Sequence record: MK327936.1
Length of the DNA: 64,000 bases
From: Escherichia phage vB_EcoM_G2540
Strand: one strand, 5' to 3'
Shown in pieces: positions 54,781 through 60,417 of this stretch (position 1 is its first letter; each line of letters starts with the position of its first letter). A model generated the notes under the pieces. It was not told where the DNA came from. It made no database searches and saw only the letters and a program-made list of their open reading frames with translations. Position numbers and translations under genes: made by a program.

Positions 54781-55044
54781 TTATTTTAACGTTCGCCAAA
54801 TTTTTACTGCTTCACGGCGAGATACTTCTACAGCTCCAAGTTCTACAGCTTTTTGGCGTCGGCGAGCGTGTAAGTCATAATGTTTAATGCGTTTATCTTG
54901 AAACCAAGAACGTTTCATTCCTATTGCTTCTGCCATTTCATGAAGCTCTTCAATATCTCCATCAGTGAACATATGACAATTTTTAGTTGGATGACCGCGA
55001 AGTTTCCATCCATGATTCATTAAAACATCTACGTAAACTGTCAT
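54781..55044 (-). CDS. hypothetical protein, 87 aa
   Basis: ORF; His/Arg-rich. Confidence 0.4.
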   Translation of the reverse strand: MTVYVDVLMNHGWKLRGHPTKNCHMFTDGDIEELHEMAEAIGMKRSWFQDKRIKHYDLHARRRQKAVELGAVEVSRREAVKIWRTLK

Positions 55045-55190
55045 TGATTCTTCTCCAAATAAGTTTCGATAATTTTCTGAGCGAGATAAACTGCATTATC
55101 TTCAGTTGCATCTTCTAAGAAACTTTCAAAACACTCTGAAATTTCTTCTGTATCAATCAACTTTTTTACTTCAATTGGTGTAATTTTCAT
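55041..55190 (-). CDS. small hypothetical protein (~49 aa from internal Met)
   Basis: ORF 55041..55361 trimmed to MKITPIEVKK because upstream sequence is promoter/terminator. Confidence 0.3.
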   Translation of the reverse strand: MKITPIEVKKLIDTEEISECFESFLEDATEDNAVYLAQKIIETYLEKNQ

Positions 55191-55227
55191 TTTGTTTTTC
55201 CGTTTAAGTGTTTGTTTTGATAGTTGT

Positions 55228-55257
55228 ATAGTACCATAAAGCTTTATGCTTGTAAAC
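55228..55257 (-). promoter_or_regulatory. T4-type early promoter (repeated cassette family)
   Basis: plus gtaaac 55252-55257, 18-bp spacer, plus atagta 55228-55233. Confidence 0.5.
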
Positions 55258-55282
55258 AATTTTGTGAAAAATTTTTGAAATA

Positions 55283-55308
55283 AAAAAAGGGAGCCCGAAG
55301 GCTCCCTA
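55283..55308 (-). terminator. intrinsic terminator
   Basis: agggagc-ccgaa-ggctccct hairpin followed on the transcript by UUUUUUUAUUU; 3' of the 328-aa ORF. Confidence 0.6.
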
Positions 55309-56295
55309 TCATTTATAATAACTTCGGTGGTTTTCAAGATAAACCCTCTCAAGGAAGTCATCCCAAAAACCCATGTCTACTTTTTGCTGCATACCGTTCT
55401 TAGAAGCTTCAGTAGATGCTGCTTCTACTTGATCGACCACATCTTCCAAAAACTCTTGAACCGTTTTAAATGGATGTTTACCCAACTTCACGTCGAGAAT
55501 AAATGGAGCATCTTGGAGTGGATAAACCAAGTCACCAGTTTTGTAAATTTCCAATAGTTGGAGTCCACCACGGCAAGCATGACTCAGAGCTTTCCAGTCA
55601 ATACCTTCATTGGCTTCGGCCTTACGAGCACGTTCACCGTATTCAGCATCTAATTTGTTCAGTGACTGCTTAAGCTCAATAAGAGAAAGCGTTGTCTGAT
55701 ATTTACGACCCAACACTGTGTAGAACGTCTGTGGGCCTGTTTTCTCATGATTATGGAACACCCATTCACAGAATTCGTTTTCTGGAAGACGATGCTTAAT
55801 ATCTTCAACTTTAGTACGACGCTGCTTAATAGAACCATCTTCTTGGTAATCAACCCATTGCTCAGGGATTTGATTAACTACTTTCAATACATCACGTAAT
55901 GCAGCCAAACGAGAACCCTTAACGCCGTATTTAGAAGCTTGCTTACGGACATATCCTAAATAGGATTTCATGTTAGTCGTATAAAAACGAGAACGGTTGT
56001 CTTGAATAAACTTCCACACATCAGGCAAATCAGATTTAACCACTAGTTCAGGTGGAGTGTGAAGCATATCTAACGCTACAGTTTCACCATCTGCTGCTAA
56101 TTTAAAGAAATATTTAAGACTGTATAGTTCATGGTCAATATCATCTTTAGTGTTTTTAGATGATGTGTTGTTAGTGTTTTTACTCATGTGCTCTTTAACA
56201 TTTCCGATAAGAATATCACGAGCAGGAGGAACAAAGATTTCTTTAAAATCTACATCAGATTCTGGGGGTAGAAGTTCCATAAAGATGACTACCAA
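55309..56295 (-). CDS. hypothetical protein, 328 aa
   Basis: large ORF with no motif I can name; directly upstream of the AAA+ ATPase block. Confidence 0.5.
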   Translation of the reverse strand: MVVIFMELLPPESDVDFKEIFVPPARDILIGNVKEHMSKNTNNTSSKNTKDDIDHELYSLKYFFKLAADGETVALDMLHTPPELVVKSDLPDVWKFIQDNRSRFYTTNMKSYLGYVRKQASKYGVKGSRLAALRDVLKVVNQIPEQWVDYQEDGSIKQRRTKVEDIKHRLPENEFCEWVFHNHEKTGPQTFYTVLGRKYQTTLSLIELKQSLNKLDAEYGERARKAEANEGIDWKALSHACRGGLQLLEIYKTGDLVYPLQDAPFILDVKLGKHPFKTVQEFLEDVVDQVEAASTEASKNGMQQKVDMGFWDDFLERVYLENHRSYYK

Positions 56296-56319
56296 AATAG
56301 CTTTTCATTACTGTTTTCA

Positions 56320-56781
56320 TCATTCAGCCTTATATTCAATAACAGGACATACTTTAGCTTTACGAGCTTTTAAAAATTCAACGATAATCGATTTCTTGGG
56401 TTGAATAGGAGGTAAACCTTTATACGCCCTATCAATATTTTCTACGTGTAAAGCATAATCCTTTTTCCATTTATAATCTTTATATTTTTCACGCAGTTGT
56501 GCAGGAATAACAAATGAACCGATAATAAGTAAAACAAGCAAAATGGCAAGTATAAATGCTGATGGAATAAGAGTCCATAAACTACCAAAAATAAGCCATT
56601 TCTGTATGATTTCTGCGCAGATGATAGTTAGACCTACGAGTATAGTACATCCGAAAAAAGAAACGAAAAATGTAGGAATAACAATAGACCAAAAATACGC
56701 GCACAGTGTCTTAGGTCGTTTCCATTCATCATTAAACATTTTGAATAATTTATAATGCCAAGAGTTTTCATTAATAATCAT
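56320..56781 (-). CDS. membrane protein, 153 aa
   Basis: two to three predicted TM helices. Confidence 0.45.
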   Translation of the reverse strand: MIINENSWHYKLFKMFNDEWKRPKTLCAYFWSIVIPTFFVSFFGCTILVGLTIICAEIIQKWLIFGSLWTLIPSAFILAILLVLLIIGSFVIPAQLREKYKDYKWKKDYALHVENIDRAYKGLPPIQPKKSIIVEFLKARKAKVCPVIEYKAE

Positions 56782-56783
56782 AA

Positions 56784-57305
56784 TTATCCTTTCATTGAAG
56801 GTGTAACAGTTGTTAAATACTTAATCATAGCTTCAGCTTCTGATTTTGATAATGAAATTTCTCCATTGTTTTGACGAATAGAAATAAAATCCGGATGACG
56901 GTCACCACCAGCTTTTAAAACACACATATAAGTATCAGTTTCATCTTCAATATTTGAAATGATTGAAGCAGTTCCACATGAATGTGGTTTTTGATAAATC
57001 AATACAGCTTTTCTTCCACCGTTTGACTGTTCATAAACTTTTAACACATCAAACAAATCACTTCTTTTATCAATAGCTAAGATGTTGTTTTCATCTTCAA
57101 TGTTAAATCCTTCGGATACTTCATAAAGCGTTACCCATAAATCACCTATATCGATAGTAGCATTTTCCTTTCCATGACTTTCAAGAGCATGACAAATTTT
57201 CTTGATTTCATCATAACTCATTTTAATAATATCATCTCCTTGAATAAGGAAGATGTCATTTTTAAATTCAACACGAATTAAACCGCTTCCACTTGAAATA
57301 AACAT
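56784..57305 (-). CDS. hypothetical protein, 173 aa (paralogue pair)
   Basis: C-terminus ...SKSEAEAMIKYLTTVTPSMKG resembles that of the adjacent 188-aa ORF. Confidence 0.45.
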   Translation of the reverse strand: MFISSGSGLIRVEFKNDIFLIQGDDIIKMSYDEIKKICHALESHGKENATIDIGDLWVTLYEVSEGFNIEDENNILAIDKRSDLFDVLKVYEQSNGGRKAVLIYQKPHSCGTASIISNIEDETDTYMCVLKAGGDRHPDFISIRQNNGEISLSKSEAEAMIKYLTTVTPSMKG

Positions 57306-57311
57306 ATTTCC

Positions 57312-57878
57312 TCACTTTGAAATCATAGTTGGAATGGCAGAATCAAGATAAGTCTTTAGCGCAATAGCTTCGTCTTTTGTAAATGTAACAATATGTGCTC
57401 GAAAATCGTCAATTTGGCGAATAGTTAAGACATCTCCTTCTTCATAACATTTTGATACATTTAAAACAGTTTCATCATTCTGATCGCACTGATCGCAAGC
57501 GTTAGTAATAATAGCATTGCAATTTTTGAGCCATTTTAAACTATGTTTTCTTTCATTAGAATAATAAAAATATTTAATCTTAGCTATAAAACTATCCCAA
57601 TGGATAACTGATAAACACATTGACTCACTTTTAATATTAAATCCTGGGCATGAAGAATAAAAATGAATTTTGTGCTCATCATTGATGCTTACTATTTTAT
57701 CAGTATAAGGATATTCAATTTGGATTAAATGAACGATTTCACTAGGCGTAAAATATAGCATATCGTCTTCTTGCGTCAAACGATACATGTTATTTACTTT
57801 TTCTATAGCCAATTCACCAAAAAGCGGACTAACTTCTAATACTAATCGTTTCATATTGATTCTCTTCGACTCACTCAC
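57312..57878 (-). CDS. hypothetical protein, 188 aa (paralogue pair)
   Basis: C-terminus ...TKDEAIALKTYLDSAIPTMISK; probable GTG start with AAGGAG Shine-Dalgarno. Confidence 0.45.
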   Translation of the reverse strand: MSESKRINMKRLVLEVSPLFGELAIEKVNNMYRLTQEDDMLYFTPSEIVHLIQIEYPYTDKIVSINDEHKIHFYSSCPGFNIKSESMCLSVIHWDSFIAKIKYFYYSNERKHSLKWLKNCNAIITNACDQCDQNDETVLNVSKCYEEGDVLTIRQIDDFRAHIVTFTKDEAIALKTYLDSAIPTMISK

Positions 57879-58013
57879 AATTACATACTCCTTTGAATAA
57901 TATCAATAATGTTGTTCACCAGATTATAAGTAAACATTGGGTAATTATATTGAATCATCACATACACAACAAACAAAACTTTCATTCTCTTCTCCTTGAC
58001 CGTTGACAAGATT

Positions 58014-58043
58014 ACTATACCATAACCTTGTCAACTTGTAAAC
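58014..58043 (-). promoter_or_regulatory. T4-type early promoter
   Basis: plus gtaaac 58038-58043, 18-bp spacer, plus actata 58014-58019. Confidence 0.45.
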
Positions 58044-58208
58044 CATTAAATGACGTTTTCAATAAAATTCTGAAGCTTTGTGTGAGCATCAACCATAATT
58101 TTCATTTCTTCCTTTGCGAAAGCTGTACCTCTTTCCCGAGCAGAATACTCATAGTCAGAAACTGCATTAGCATATTCTTCAATTAGCTTCATTAAAAACA
58201 TTTGCTTT

Positions 58209-58439
58209 TCAGTTTTCATTATTCCACCTAATCATTTCAAGATATTGAACTAACTTAGCTTTGGATTTATCCAAATCCTTTTTAGCTGCTTCTATACCGT
58301 CGTATGAATATCCTTCACAGTGCTCAACTGCCAATTGATATGAATCTATTTCAATATCACGTGCTAATTTAATGATTTTTTCAAACTGTTCACGTGTTAG
58401 CATACTAAACTCTCGTATTATGATCAATAATTTCATCAA
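58209..58439 (-). CDS. small hypothetical protein, 76 aa
   Basis: ORF. Confidence 0.35.
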   Translation of the reverse strand: MMKLLIIIREFSMLTREQFEKIIKLARDIEIDSYQLAVEHCEGYSYDGIEAAKKDLDKSKAKLVQYLEMIRWNNEN

Positions 58440-58644
58440 GAAACATATCTAACGCTTCTAAAGCATTATCAACTTTAGCTTCAAATTTTTCAATACCTTT
58501 ATTTGCAATGCCTGCCGAAAACCAAGCAAAGTCACTAAGTTCCTCATCTGCTTTGCGAATTAAAGCTACCAATTCTTTAATTTTATCTGCTTGTTCAATT
58601 CTAGTCATTATTCCACCACATATGAAAGAGAGAATATTGCACAC
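58405..58644 (-). CDS. small hypothetical protein, 79 aa
   Basis: ORF. Confidence 0.35.
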
Positions 58645-58796
58645 GCCATATGAGTTGCAGCTTCATCACACATATCATAACGTTTCTTAAGAAGTTCTAC
58701 AAGTTCTTCACTAGTAACTTCATCCATGTCGACGAAAAAATCACCATTAATGATGACGTAGATATTTCCTTCTTGATTGAGTGCTTCAATTTTCAT
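58608..58796 (-). CDS. small hypothetical protein (~62 aa from internal Met)
   Basis: ORF 58608..58841 trimmed to MKIEALNQ (GGAG Shine-Dalgarno) because the upstream part overlaps the promoter. Confidence 0.35.
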
Positions 58797-58824
58797 GATG
58801 TTCTCCTCTTTATCCGATAGTTGT

Positions 58825-58854
58825 ATAGTACCACAGCTCAAACGGAAAGTAAAC
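58825..58854 (-). promoter_or_regulatory. T4-type early promoter (repeated cassette family)
   Basis: plus gtaaac 58849-58854, 18-bp spacer, plus atagta 58825-58830. Confidence 0.5.
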
Positions 58855-58864
58855 CGGCAAAATG

Positions 58865-58888
58865 AAAAAAGTCTCCCGAAGGAGACTA
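58865..58888 (-). terminator. intrinsic terminator
   Basis: agtctc-ccgaa-ggagact hairpin followed on the transcript by UUUUUUC; 3' of the 128-aa ORF. Confidence 0.6.
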
Positions 58889-58891
58889 ATG

Positions 58892-59278
58892 TTATTCGAG
58901 GGAAAGAAGATACTTACTCTGGTAAAACATTCCAGTAATATCATCTATCGTGCTTTGAATGGCTGGAGGCATTTCTTTATAAATGCTGTTAGATTGATCT
59001 AGTATGCGATCAATCATTTTAATTGTGTCGGTAGGAAGTTTACTGGCATCTGGAATTGAAGGCGTGTATTTTCTACCAGAATACCCCAAATATTGCTCAC
59101 CAAATTTATCAATCAAATCTGGCAACTCGGAGAAAATAAAATCGTATGCTTTGTGTCTAGCATAACTTTTAGTTTCAAAATGTGCAGAATGAAAATAAGC
59201 TTGTGCAGCCATTAATAAACCTAAGTATTCATCTGCCTTTGAAGGTTTTCCACTTTGTGAAAAGTCGCTGAATTTCAT
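58892..59278 (-). CDS. hypothetical protein, 128 aa (rI.-1 position)
   Basis: ORF directly downstream of rI. Confidence 0.45.
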
Positions 59279-59568
59279 TCAGTCTCCAATTTAATGTTCA
59301 TAATTCTAGCGTATGATTGTGCCATCTCCGCGCCTCGCTCTATACATTCAAAATCGGAAGAGCACGGGTCATTTTTATAAGTCGTTCGCATAAAACTATA
59401 GAACTGTTCAGATGATTCTACGCTTTTGTTTTCAAAAAGCATATAAACGTGTCTAATACCAGATTCCATAAATTTATCAAAATGAGAATCGACATTCGCT
59501 TCAATTGGTGGAGATAAAGCAAATGCTAATCCTAGCATGGCAAATAGTGCCGTTGCTTTTAAGGCCAT
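59275..59568 (-). CDS. rI: lysis-inhibition regulator RI, 97 aa
   Basis: 97 aa; MALKATALFAMLGL...[69 protein letters not shown] matches recalled T4 RI. Confidence 0.8.
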   Translation of the reverse strand: MALKATALFAMLGLAFALSPPIEANVDSHFDKFMESGIRHVYMLFENKSVESSEQFYSFMRTTYKNDPCSSDFECIERGAEMAQSYARIMNIKLETE

Positions 59569-59580
59569 AAAGGCCTCCTA

Positions 59581-59793
59581 TCATTTTTGTCCTGTATTTA
59601 CTTTATGCCGATGCACGGCCTTAACTTTATCAAGGTATTTTTCAAAATTTCGCAATCTAGTATAGTCTGCCGGAGATTGGTTGAGTGATACTTCTCGACG
59701 CAAAGCTGAAATGATATTTCCAACTTCCCTACGAATTTCATCTAATTGAAGAACAGTAAGATTGCGAAGTTGCTTTTCAGTTAATTGTAGCAT
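59581..59793 (-). CDS. small hypothetical protein, 70 aa (rI.1 position)
   Basis: ORF between the late promoter and rI. Confidence 0.4.
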
Positions 59794-59818
59794 ATATACC
59801 CCTTTAGTTAGATAAACC

Positions 59819-59826
59819 TATTTATA
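59819..59826 (-). promoter_or_regulatory. late promoter (TATAAATA)
   Basis: plus tatttata 59819-59826 is the reverse complement of TATAAATA; lies in the tk-rI.1 intergenic region. Confidence 0.5.
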
Positions 59827-59835
59827 ACTTTTGCA

Positions 59836-60417
59836 CTAACCGAGCTTTTTAGTTAATTCATTCCAATGTTTTCTACACAAAGAAACATAAATTTCATCAC
59901 CAATACAGATTTGATTACCTTCTTTAACTGGTGTTCCATCTTCCATTAATCGAGCTGTTATAATAGCTTTTTTACCACAATGACAAACTGCCTTTAGTTC
60001 AATAAGTTTATCTGCAATCGCCAAAAGTTCTTTAGAACCTTCAAATAATTTTCCAGCGAAATCAGTCCTTAGCCCATAAGCCATAACAGGAACATTATAT
60101 GTATCAACAATTCGACTTAATTGATGCACCTGTTCAGTTTTTAAAAACTGAGCTTCATCTACAAATACACAATGAATATCTTTTTGTGCTTCAGCCCATT
60201 TATAGAACTCAAAAATATCCATATCATCCGTAATAATATTCGCTTCCTGCTTAATTCCAATGCGAGAAACGACTTCACAGACAGAATCGCGAGTATCAAT
60301 AGCAGGCTTAAGAACTAATACACCCATTCCGCGTTCTTTATAATTATGTGCAGCAGTCAAAAGAGAAGCAGATTTTCCAGCATTCATTGCTGCGTAAGTA
60401 AAAATTAAACTCGCCAT
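59836..60417 (-). CDS. tk: thymidine kinase, 193 aa
   Basis: 193 aa as in T4; P-loop (AAMNAGKS) and C-terminal Zn-binding Cys pairs. Confidence 0.8.
   Translation of the reverse strand: MASLIFTYAAMNAGKSASLLTAAHNYKERGMGVLVLKPAIDTRDSVCEVVSRIGIKQEANIITDDMDIFEFYKWAEAQKDIHCVFVDEAQFLKTEQVHQLSRIVDTYNVPVMAYGLRTDFAGKLFEGSKELLAIADKLIELKAVCHCGKKAIITARLMEDGTPVKEGNQICIGDEIYVSLCRKHWNELTKKLG

Follow-up and report, generated by a model that had tools for sequence, protein, structure and literature searches.

Two adjacent genes on the minus strand of Escherichia phage vB_EcoM_G2540 (sequence record MK327936.1) were analyzed within a stretch of 64,000 nucleotides (nt), here called the window, whose numbering is used throughout unless a locus is named. 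Alignments indicate that the 188-amino-acid (aa) open reading frame (ORF) at 57312..57878 and the 173-aa ORF at 56784..57305 are ancient tandem duplicates of the MobD.1 family of phage T4. Both proteins are predicted to fold into three consecutive repeats in the layout of the eukaryotic nucleic acid-binding protein Pur-alpha. The reading preferred here, that MobD.1 and its paralog are PUR-like dimers acting on nucleic acid, is held at about even confidence. T4 is the reference phage, and roughly half of its genes, mobD.1 included, have no assigned function.

Identity and paralogy of the pair

Both ORFs were found at the coordinates given for them in an earlier note on this DNA, and the two C-terminal tails quoted there were exact. 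The 188-aa ORF was 84% identical to T4 MobD.1 (UniProt P39240; E = 8e-116) and retained its position between mobD.2 and nrdC.11; by sequence and gene order it was assigned as the ortholog of T4 MobD.1, also named Y05I. Translation of this gene may start either at GTG 57878, giving 188 aa, or at ATG 57854, giving the 180-aa product annotated in RefSeq. The GTG has AAGGAG 9 nt upstream. Because it aligns with the start region of T4 MobD.1 (MMSEAKRL), and because the equivalent of the internal ATG is not present in T4, homology favors GTG 57878 and the 188-aa form is plausible. The 173-aa ORF, absent from T4, matched T4 MobD.1 at only 25% identity (E = 3e-10) and was therefore considered a paralog rather than an ortholog.

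Searches against Pfam placed both proteins far above the family thresholds. The 188-aa protein scored 133.7 bits with PF24449 (T4_y05I_N; E = 3.9e-39; gathering cutoff, 24.9) and 77.5 bits with PF24448 (T4_y05I_C; E = 1e-21; gathering cutoff, 27), and the 173-aa protein scored 113.9 and 82.9 bits, respectively. Both also matched phrog_1502 (E = 5.8e-79 for the 188-aa and 1.8e-66 for the 173-aa protein). The pair had been presented as a second small diversifying family, which missed the existing Pfam/PHROG family to which both proteins belong; they are new members of a family that is already catalogued and functionally uncharacterized, with one copy in T4 and two in the window. Pfam describes PF24449 and PF24448 as "y05I-like putative transcription factor," the family being named after the UniProt entry name y05I. 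No functional study turned up in the literature under mobD.1, y05I, the Pfam accessions, or NP_049711; the results were limited to one line of a table giving the insertion site of mobD, omics data, and deletion data. RefSeq names the MobD.1 ortholog (57312-57854), as well as T4 mobD.4 (T4 locus L003, 8353-8535), [quoted passage not shown] Neither protein matched a molybdopterin-related family, and the label looks like an error of name propagation from the T4 symbols mobD.x, which mean only adjacency to mobile endonuclease D.

The proposal that the two ORFs form a tandem paralog pair was borne out by pairwise alignment with shuffle statistics. By BLASTP, the proteins aligned over nearly their full length (178 columns) with 26% identity and 47% positives (E = 1e-7), and the Smith-Waterman score of 86 compared with 30.9 ± 5.0 for 2,000 shuffles (z = 11), none of which reached 86. 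These values rule out chance similarity. When the proteins were divided into regions, significant similarity was detected for the N-terminal ~100 aa (z = 6.1; 1/2,000 shuffles) and for the last 24 to 25 aa (z = 6.2; 0/2,000 shuffles), while the first two thirds of the C domain were not significant alone (z = 1.0). The description of related tails on diverged bodies was therefore right about the tail and incomplete about the bodies, whose N domains are also detectably homologous. Similarity limited to the tail was ruled out, since the N domains are significantly alike and both Pfam domains match both proteins.

Predicted fold, conserved tail, and proposed function

AlphaFold2 models of the monomers were built with a 21-sequence alignment. 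In both proteins, the models comprised three consecutive units of four strands and one helix (E-E-E-E-H, or beta4-alpha). Units 1 and 2, corresponding to the Pfam N domain (57555..57845 in the MobD.1 ortholog), were predicted with a local confidence score (pLDDT) of ~90 in MobD.1 and 78 to 91 in the paralog. Unit 3, the Pfam C domain (PF24448; 57324..57542), consisted of strands and then one helix, at a pLDDT of ~48 and 55 to 70, respectively. Comparison of unit 1 with unit 3 by hhalign gave P = 1.3e-4, with LTQEDD...FTPSEI aligned to IRQIDD...FTKDEA, and a stand-alone C-domain protein weakly matched the N-domain model. These matches suggest that the units are diverged repeats, with units 1 and 3 weakly homologous.

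In structural comparison, the nucleic acid binders Pur-alpha, MRP1/2, and Whirly matched clearly better than anything else, and the N-domain fold was kept in both models. A jumbo-phage RNA-binding protein is reportedly also Whirly-related. In the models, the N domain takes the form of a PC4-like type I domain, as in PUR repeats I and II and Whirly-like proteins. Type I domains are formed by two beta4-alpha repeats of one chain and type II domains by one repeat from each of two chains; each type has its helices swapped onto the partner sheet, which makes it unlikely that a single repeat folds by itself (PMC7549692). Pur-alpha (PURA), which binds single-stranded DNA (ssDNA) and single-stranded RNA (ssRNA) and consists of repeats I and II plus repeat III, is unique among known proteins in combining the two types, and heterodimers of Pur-alpha and Pur-beta through repeat III are conceivable (PMC7549692). 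The Y05I proteins are predicted to share this three-repeat layout. The full-length models also matched Bpur of Borrelia burgdorferi, a homodimer of a single PUR repeat, and the type II protein PC4/Sub1, in each case without sequence similarity and with some ambiguity as to which unit was aligned. PC4-like proteins are known in phages, including the single-stranded DNA-binding (SSB)-like protein 4BG7 of T5 and AcrIIA22 (PMC8545432). Unlike Y05I, to which they are unrelated in sequence, these proteins and Whirly/MRP1-MRP2 are basic in most cases, and they assemble into tetramers or other complexes.

The third unit ends in the conserved tail. In the MobD.1 ortholog, the tail KDEAIALKTYLDSAIPTM (57324..57377) was modeled as a helix at residues 160 to 177 (180-aa numbering), and in the paralog the C-terminal helix KSEAEAMIKYLTTV (56805..56846) spanned residues 154 to 167; the family motif is TK.EA.AL..YL..VIPTM. 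The pair shares (T/S)K.EA.A(L/M)..YL....P(T/S)M. No other block of the C-domain alignment was as well conserved as this segment, whose hydrophobic positions fell in an a/d/e stripe; the tail is predicted to be the amphipathic helix of unit 3 followed by an IPTM cap. A conserved C-terminal tail had been reported as a property of the pair; it is indeed shared by both proteins, but it is not specific to them, being a family-wide signature helix. Unit 3 also occurs by itself, in about 11 stand-alone proteins of 67 to 87 aa that retain the tail (consensus LTK.EA.AL..YLN.VIPTMK), and one stand-alone C-domain entry in BFVD was from Yersinia phage fHe-Yen9-01. Ratios of nonsynonymous to synonymous divergence (dN/dS) were calculated by the Nei-Gojobori method. 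Against the Mosigvirus allele, the tail region was 71% identical with a dS of 0.87 and a dN/dS of 0.23, compared with 37% identity and a dN/dS of 0.47 for the N domain; constraint on the tail therefore acts at the protein level.

In the mechanism proposed here, units 1 and 2 would pack together as a PC4-like or PUR-type domain (T4_y05I_N), leaving unit 3 (T4_y05I_C) as a lone half-domain. By analogy with repeat III of Pur-alpha and with the single-repeat Pur-alpha of Borrelia, such a half-domain would bury its amphipathic helix and sheet only by pairing with a second copy. Unit 3 would then be a pairing half-domain with the tail as its interface, and the tail helix would be conserved because it forms the pairing surface. 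Since a lone half-domain would have to pair, the proteins are most likely obligate dimers, and where both genes are present, either homodimers or MobD.1/paralog heterodimers may form. Pairing is favored by the low monomer confidence of unit 3 next to a confident N domain, by the weak homology of units 1 and 3, by the stand-alone proteins, by the hydrophobic stripe and the constraint on the tail, and by the intact natural hybrid described below. The proteins would be made early, from the putative promoter upstream of mobD.2, and by analogy within the fold class their ligand during host takeover would be single-stranded nucleic acid or a nucleic acid-handling partner. The pair would be accessory rather than essential. 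MobD.1 is early and dispensable in T4: mobD.1 is early at both the RNA and protein levels and mobD.2 at the RNA level (PMC9697503 supplement), and a T4 deletion from nrdC.11 to mobD.3 is viable (PMC9825161).

Several observations weigh against this proposal. Full-length members of the family are acidic, with isoelectric points (pI) of 4.2 to 5.5 and net charges of −6 to −22, which is atypical for a nucleic acid-binding surface. The pair itself has pI values of 4.8 and 5.3 to 5.5, the N domain of the 173-aa protein has a pI of 4.4, and several invariant residues are acidic; among the conserved acidic positions are E13, D25, E33, E72, D139, and E156. Nucleic acid binding is therefore uncertain. 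In sequence searches, hmmscan of Pfam-A at E ≤ 0.1 matched neither the PurA nor the Whirly model, its sole results being the y05I domains and a DUF7189 match under the threshold. Likewise, when the sequences of solved structures were searched with phmmer and hmmsearch, using both single sequences and the C-domain profile, the best E value was 0.6 and no Pur-alpha chain was recovered. With no sequence match to a PUR repeat profile, the resemblance to the PUR family appears, from the models, to be structural only. The shallowness of the 21-sequence alignment may by itself account for the low pLDDT of unit 3. Finally, the basic function of the family cannot depend on a heterodimer, given that T4, Mosigvirus, and Gaprivervirus have only one copy.

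The same fold and dimer might instead constitute an acidic protein-binding module that, early in infection, binds or inhibits a protein of the host or the phage and does not bind nucleic acid. Such a module might mimic single-stranded nucleic acid, or it might be an adaptor or chaperone like the Whirly-like SsgA, the DUF4176 type VII secretion chaperones, or the CdiI immunity proteins. The consistent acidity of the family and its conserved acidic residues agree with this alternative, as does the behavior of the genes, which are early, dispensable, mosaic, and lost or replaced in some phages, as is typical of host-interaction accessory genes. However, the top structural matches are nucleic acid binders, PADLOC and NCBIfam gave no matches for either paralog, and overall acidity is compatible with a local basic or aromatic binding face. 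We regard a purely protein-binding role as possible, though not probable.

If MobD.1 and its paralog are PUR-like dimers, their placement in the PC4-like/PUR fold class, with a three-repeat layout like that of Pur-alpha, would explain the conservation of the tail and might supply a second instance of an architecture for which a published review names Pur-alpha as the sole case. A fuller version, which we consider rather unlikely, would make Y05I/MobD.1 the second family after eukaryotic Pur-alpha with domains of type I as well as type II. The Tequatrovirus paralogs would heterodimerize through their C domains, and the acidic assembly would act early on, or mimic, ssRNA or ssDNA to counter a host function directed at nucleic acid, perhaps together with the downstream membrane protein and NrdC.11. 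The immediate impact is modest, this being an uncharacterized and dispensable accessory family.

Distribution, loss, and allele replacement

MobD.1 relatives were detected in 727 phage records. About 415 of these were at least 60% identical and were taken to be Tequatrovirus; among the relatives sampled, ~44% identity corresponded to Mosigvirus (AV114) and ~31 to 33% to Gaprivervirus (SP18). The 173-aa paralog was at least 90% identical in ~433 records, all of them T4-like phages of enterobacteria. A profile search run exhaustively over 1.84 billion cluster representatives recovered only 27 proteins (50% clustering), and a word-indexed search was also narrow; the family therefore offers no cellular relatives to inform function. 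In the sampled phages AV114 and SP18, a single MobD.1 gene is followed by a relative of the membrane protein gene described below and then by nrdC.11. Given this single copy, the duplication appears to be specific to Tequatrovirus, in which the pair is the common state.

Three kinds of change were documented at the locus: replacement by a homing endonuclease gene in T4, fusion of the paralogs at a 10-nt microhomology, and mosaic allele swaps. In T4, the HNH homing endonuclease gene mobD occupies the place taken in the window by the 173-aa gene and the 153-aa membrane protein gene. Just past MobD.1, T4 keeps a remnant of the 173-aa gene, consisting of its ribosome-binding site plus its initial 19 nt (MFISSG; locus L003, 7209-7283, against window 56320-57305). 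From this remnant it follows that T4 lost the second copy and that mobD replaced the 173-aa and 153-aa genes. MobD at ≥95% identity was found in only 47 records. The target of MobD is listed as unknown (PMC2988022), and the mobD-less allele in the window is a natural place to seek its cleavage site.

A natural hybrid of the two genes (P0011) follows MobD.1 through ...CDQCDQNDET and the paralog from DTYMCVLK... to the end, thereby joining the N domain and first part of unit 3 of MobD.1 to the final strands and the helix of the paralog. The junction coincides with an exact 10-mer, GATGAAACTG, present in MobD.1 at 57467..57476 and, in frame 531 nt (177 codons) farther downstream, in the 173-aa gene at 56936..56945. 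Six contigs with the hybrid are on record. In the four metagenomic contigs that were retrieved, from four sequencing runs (L004 to L007), it stands alone in place of the pair, directly upstream of a relative of the membrane protein gene, and its 179-aa reading frame is intact in all four; nrdC.11 comes next in the three longer contigs. Between mobD.2 and the hybrid, the hybrid contigs also hold one DUF7438 and one Phage_tudor gene.

In the T2 record (NC_054931.1; locus L009, 1940-3481), MobD.1, the paralog, and the membrane protein gene are each frameshifted and nrdC.11 is intact, which may represent either genuine decay of the module into pseudogenes or local sequencing error. An apparent "57% identical" allele of the paralog in T2 was rejected because it proved to be this frameshifted copy. 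One T2 fragment is mislabeled "Prohead core scaffold protein" in UniProt.

Such losses would be expected if the genes were independent, redundant duplicates forming homodimers only, with the second copy heading for loss. T4 lost that copy without visible cost, the T2 record has three broken genes, a single hybrid replaces the pair in some phages, and the other genera have one copy. On the other side, the 173-aa gene is intact in ~433 records with a dN/dS of 0.14 to 0.18, and 26% identity between the paralogs argues for long coexistence and functional divergence. Redundancy of this kind is judged unlikely.

With orthologs from ime09 and T4 as the comparison, dN/dS was 0.14 to 0.18 for the 173-aa gene and 0.18 to 0.19 for MobD.1, against 0.02 to 0.11 for tk and nrdC.11; between allele classes it was at most 0.48. 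Both paralogs are under relaxed purifying selection, not diversifying selection, and positive selection was rejected, as no value among orthologs was near or above 1. Variation took a different form. The MobD.1 allele of RB27 was 47% identical to that of the window and 68% identical to the Mosigvirus type, within flanks of 95 to 100% identity, with sharp recombination breakpoints near 57870 and 57440. RB27 also has an extra 61-aa gene between mobD.2 and MobD.1 (locus L008, 2311-3040). The pattern indicates cassette-like exchange of alleles between genera, and the existing variation of MobD.1 is best described as mosaic allele replacement. The breakpoint near 57440 lies inside the gene, and the identity of the RB27 and window tails stems from it rather than from selection. 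For the 173-aa gene, a second and genuinely divergent allele class was represented by P0010 (56% identical).

The earlier note had taken the pair for a diversifying family. On such a view, positive selection, as in an arms race, would drive fast evolution of the bodies, and the constant tail would be a common anchoring or targeting signal. The low identity of the paralogs around a best-conserved tail and the sharply different alleles of RB27 and P0010 would suit that view, but it is largely refuted and very improbable given the dN/dS values within and between allele classes, the near-uniformity of the 173-aa gene across its ~433 records, the significant homology and shared predicted fold of the N domains, the recombinational origin of the RB27-window tail identity, and the probable nature of the tail as a structural helix of a domain also found alone.

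Neighboring genes and regulatory elements

The window belongs to Tequatrovirus. Positions 56300-58100 were 100% identical to Escherichia phage vB_EcoM_G9062 and 90 to 99% identical to several hundred T4-like phages. The placement of the pair in an accessory block held up. Every gene here is on the minus strand, and in the downstream direction the T4 equivalents are tk, rI.1, rI, rI.-1, mobD.5, mobD.4, mobD.3, mobD.2a, mobD.2, and MobD.1, followed in the window by two genes absent from T4 and then by nrdC.11. Gaps are 2 to 6 nt from mobD.2 through the membrane protein gene and ~25 to 40 nt from the latter to nrdC.11.

The 34-codon ORF at 57881..57985, noted previously as hydrophobic and coupled upstream of the pair, is the mobD.2 ortholog (phrog_3515, E = 3.7e-22), 91% identical to T4 mobD.2 with a dN/dS of 0.27. 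It has a strong Shine-Dalgarno sequence (AAGGAG). Its hydrophobicity is only moderate (grand average of hydropathy, +0.68), and no 15-residue stretch reached transmembrane-like hydrophobicity. The suggested coupling was upheld as physical adjacency only, the mobD.2 stop lying 2 nt ahead of GTG 57878: one or two extra genes stand between mobD.2 and MobD.1 in other phages (RB27 and contigs L004 to L006), and an obligatory functional link is thus unsupported.

Upstream of mobD.2, a putative promoter of the sigma-70/T4-early type was located by consensus scan at 58014..58042 on the minus strand (TTTACA, 17-nt spacer, TATAGT), with 10/12 consensus matches plus an extended −10 TG; its sequence is kept in T4. 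A repeat search detected an inverted repeat at 58002..58035, GTTGACAAGGTTA / TAATCTTGTCAAC, with 13-nt arms that are 92% complementary and 8 nt apart. It extends across the −10 element and the expected start of transcription, an operator-like position, and is also present in T4; within the window it is unique, with 0 expected by chance.

Downstream of the pair, after a 2-nt gap, the gene at 56320..56781 encodes a 153-aa protein of the RB69ORF104c type (phrog_944, "membrane protein"; E = 1e-49). The protein is basic (pI 9.4) with two predicted transmembrane segments, at residues ~30 to 58 and 62 to 96. The gene is absent from T4. In Gaprivervirus SP18, MobD.1 is followed by a relative of this gene (28% identity), which carries a membrane protein annotation; the same probably holds for Mosigvirus AV114, whose downstream gene (44%) is not so annotated. 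The last gene of the apparent unit, nrdC.11 (55309..56295), encodes a protein 99% identical to T4 NrdC.11, with matches to PF10127 (RlaP; E = 1.8e-6) and phrog_388 (E = 5e-124). NrdC.11 is an RlaP-family nucleotidyltransferase without an assigned function (bioRxiv 10.64898/2025.12.29.696909). Its conserved position downstream of MobD.1 is suggestive, yet gene order is broadly conserved among T4-like phages. Immediately after nrdC.11, at 55288..55307 on the minus strand, lies an intrinsic terminator-like hairpin of 8 pairs (6 GC) followed by TTTTTTTATTT; the RefSeq record of G9062 carries a terminator annotation here. An Rfam scan of 55000-60000 gave two sub-threshold matches only, which were taken as chance (L20_leader, E = 0.021, far under the gathering score).

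Between nrdC.10 and nrdC.11, a DUF4031 gene (54781-55044) and a small ORF (~55041-55190), both on the minus strand, form a further accessory insertion that is not in T4. Directly upstream of mobD.2, three consecutive small minus-strand ORFs (58046-58219, 58209-58439, and 58405-58644), equivalent to T4 mobD.2a, mobD.3, and mobD.4, all match the Pfam domain DUF7438 and make up another tandem paralog family; two of the three weakly match a PHROG labeled "helicase loader."

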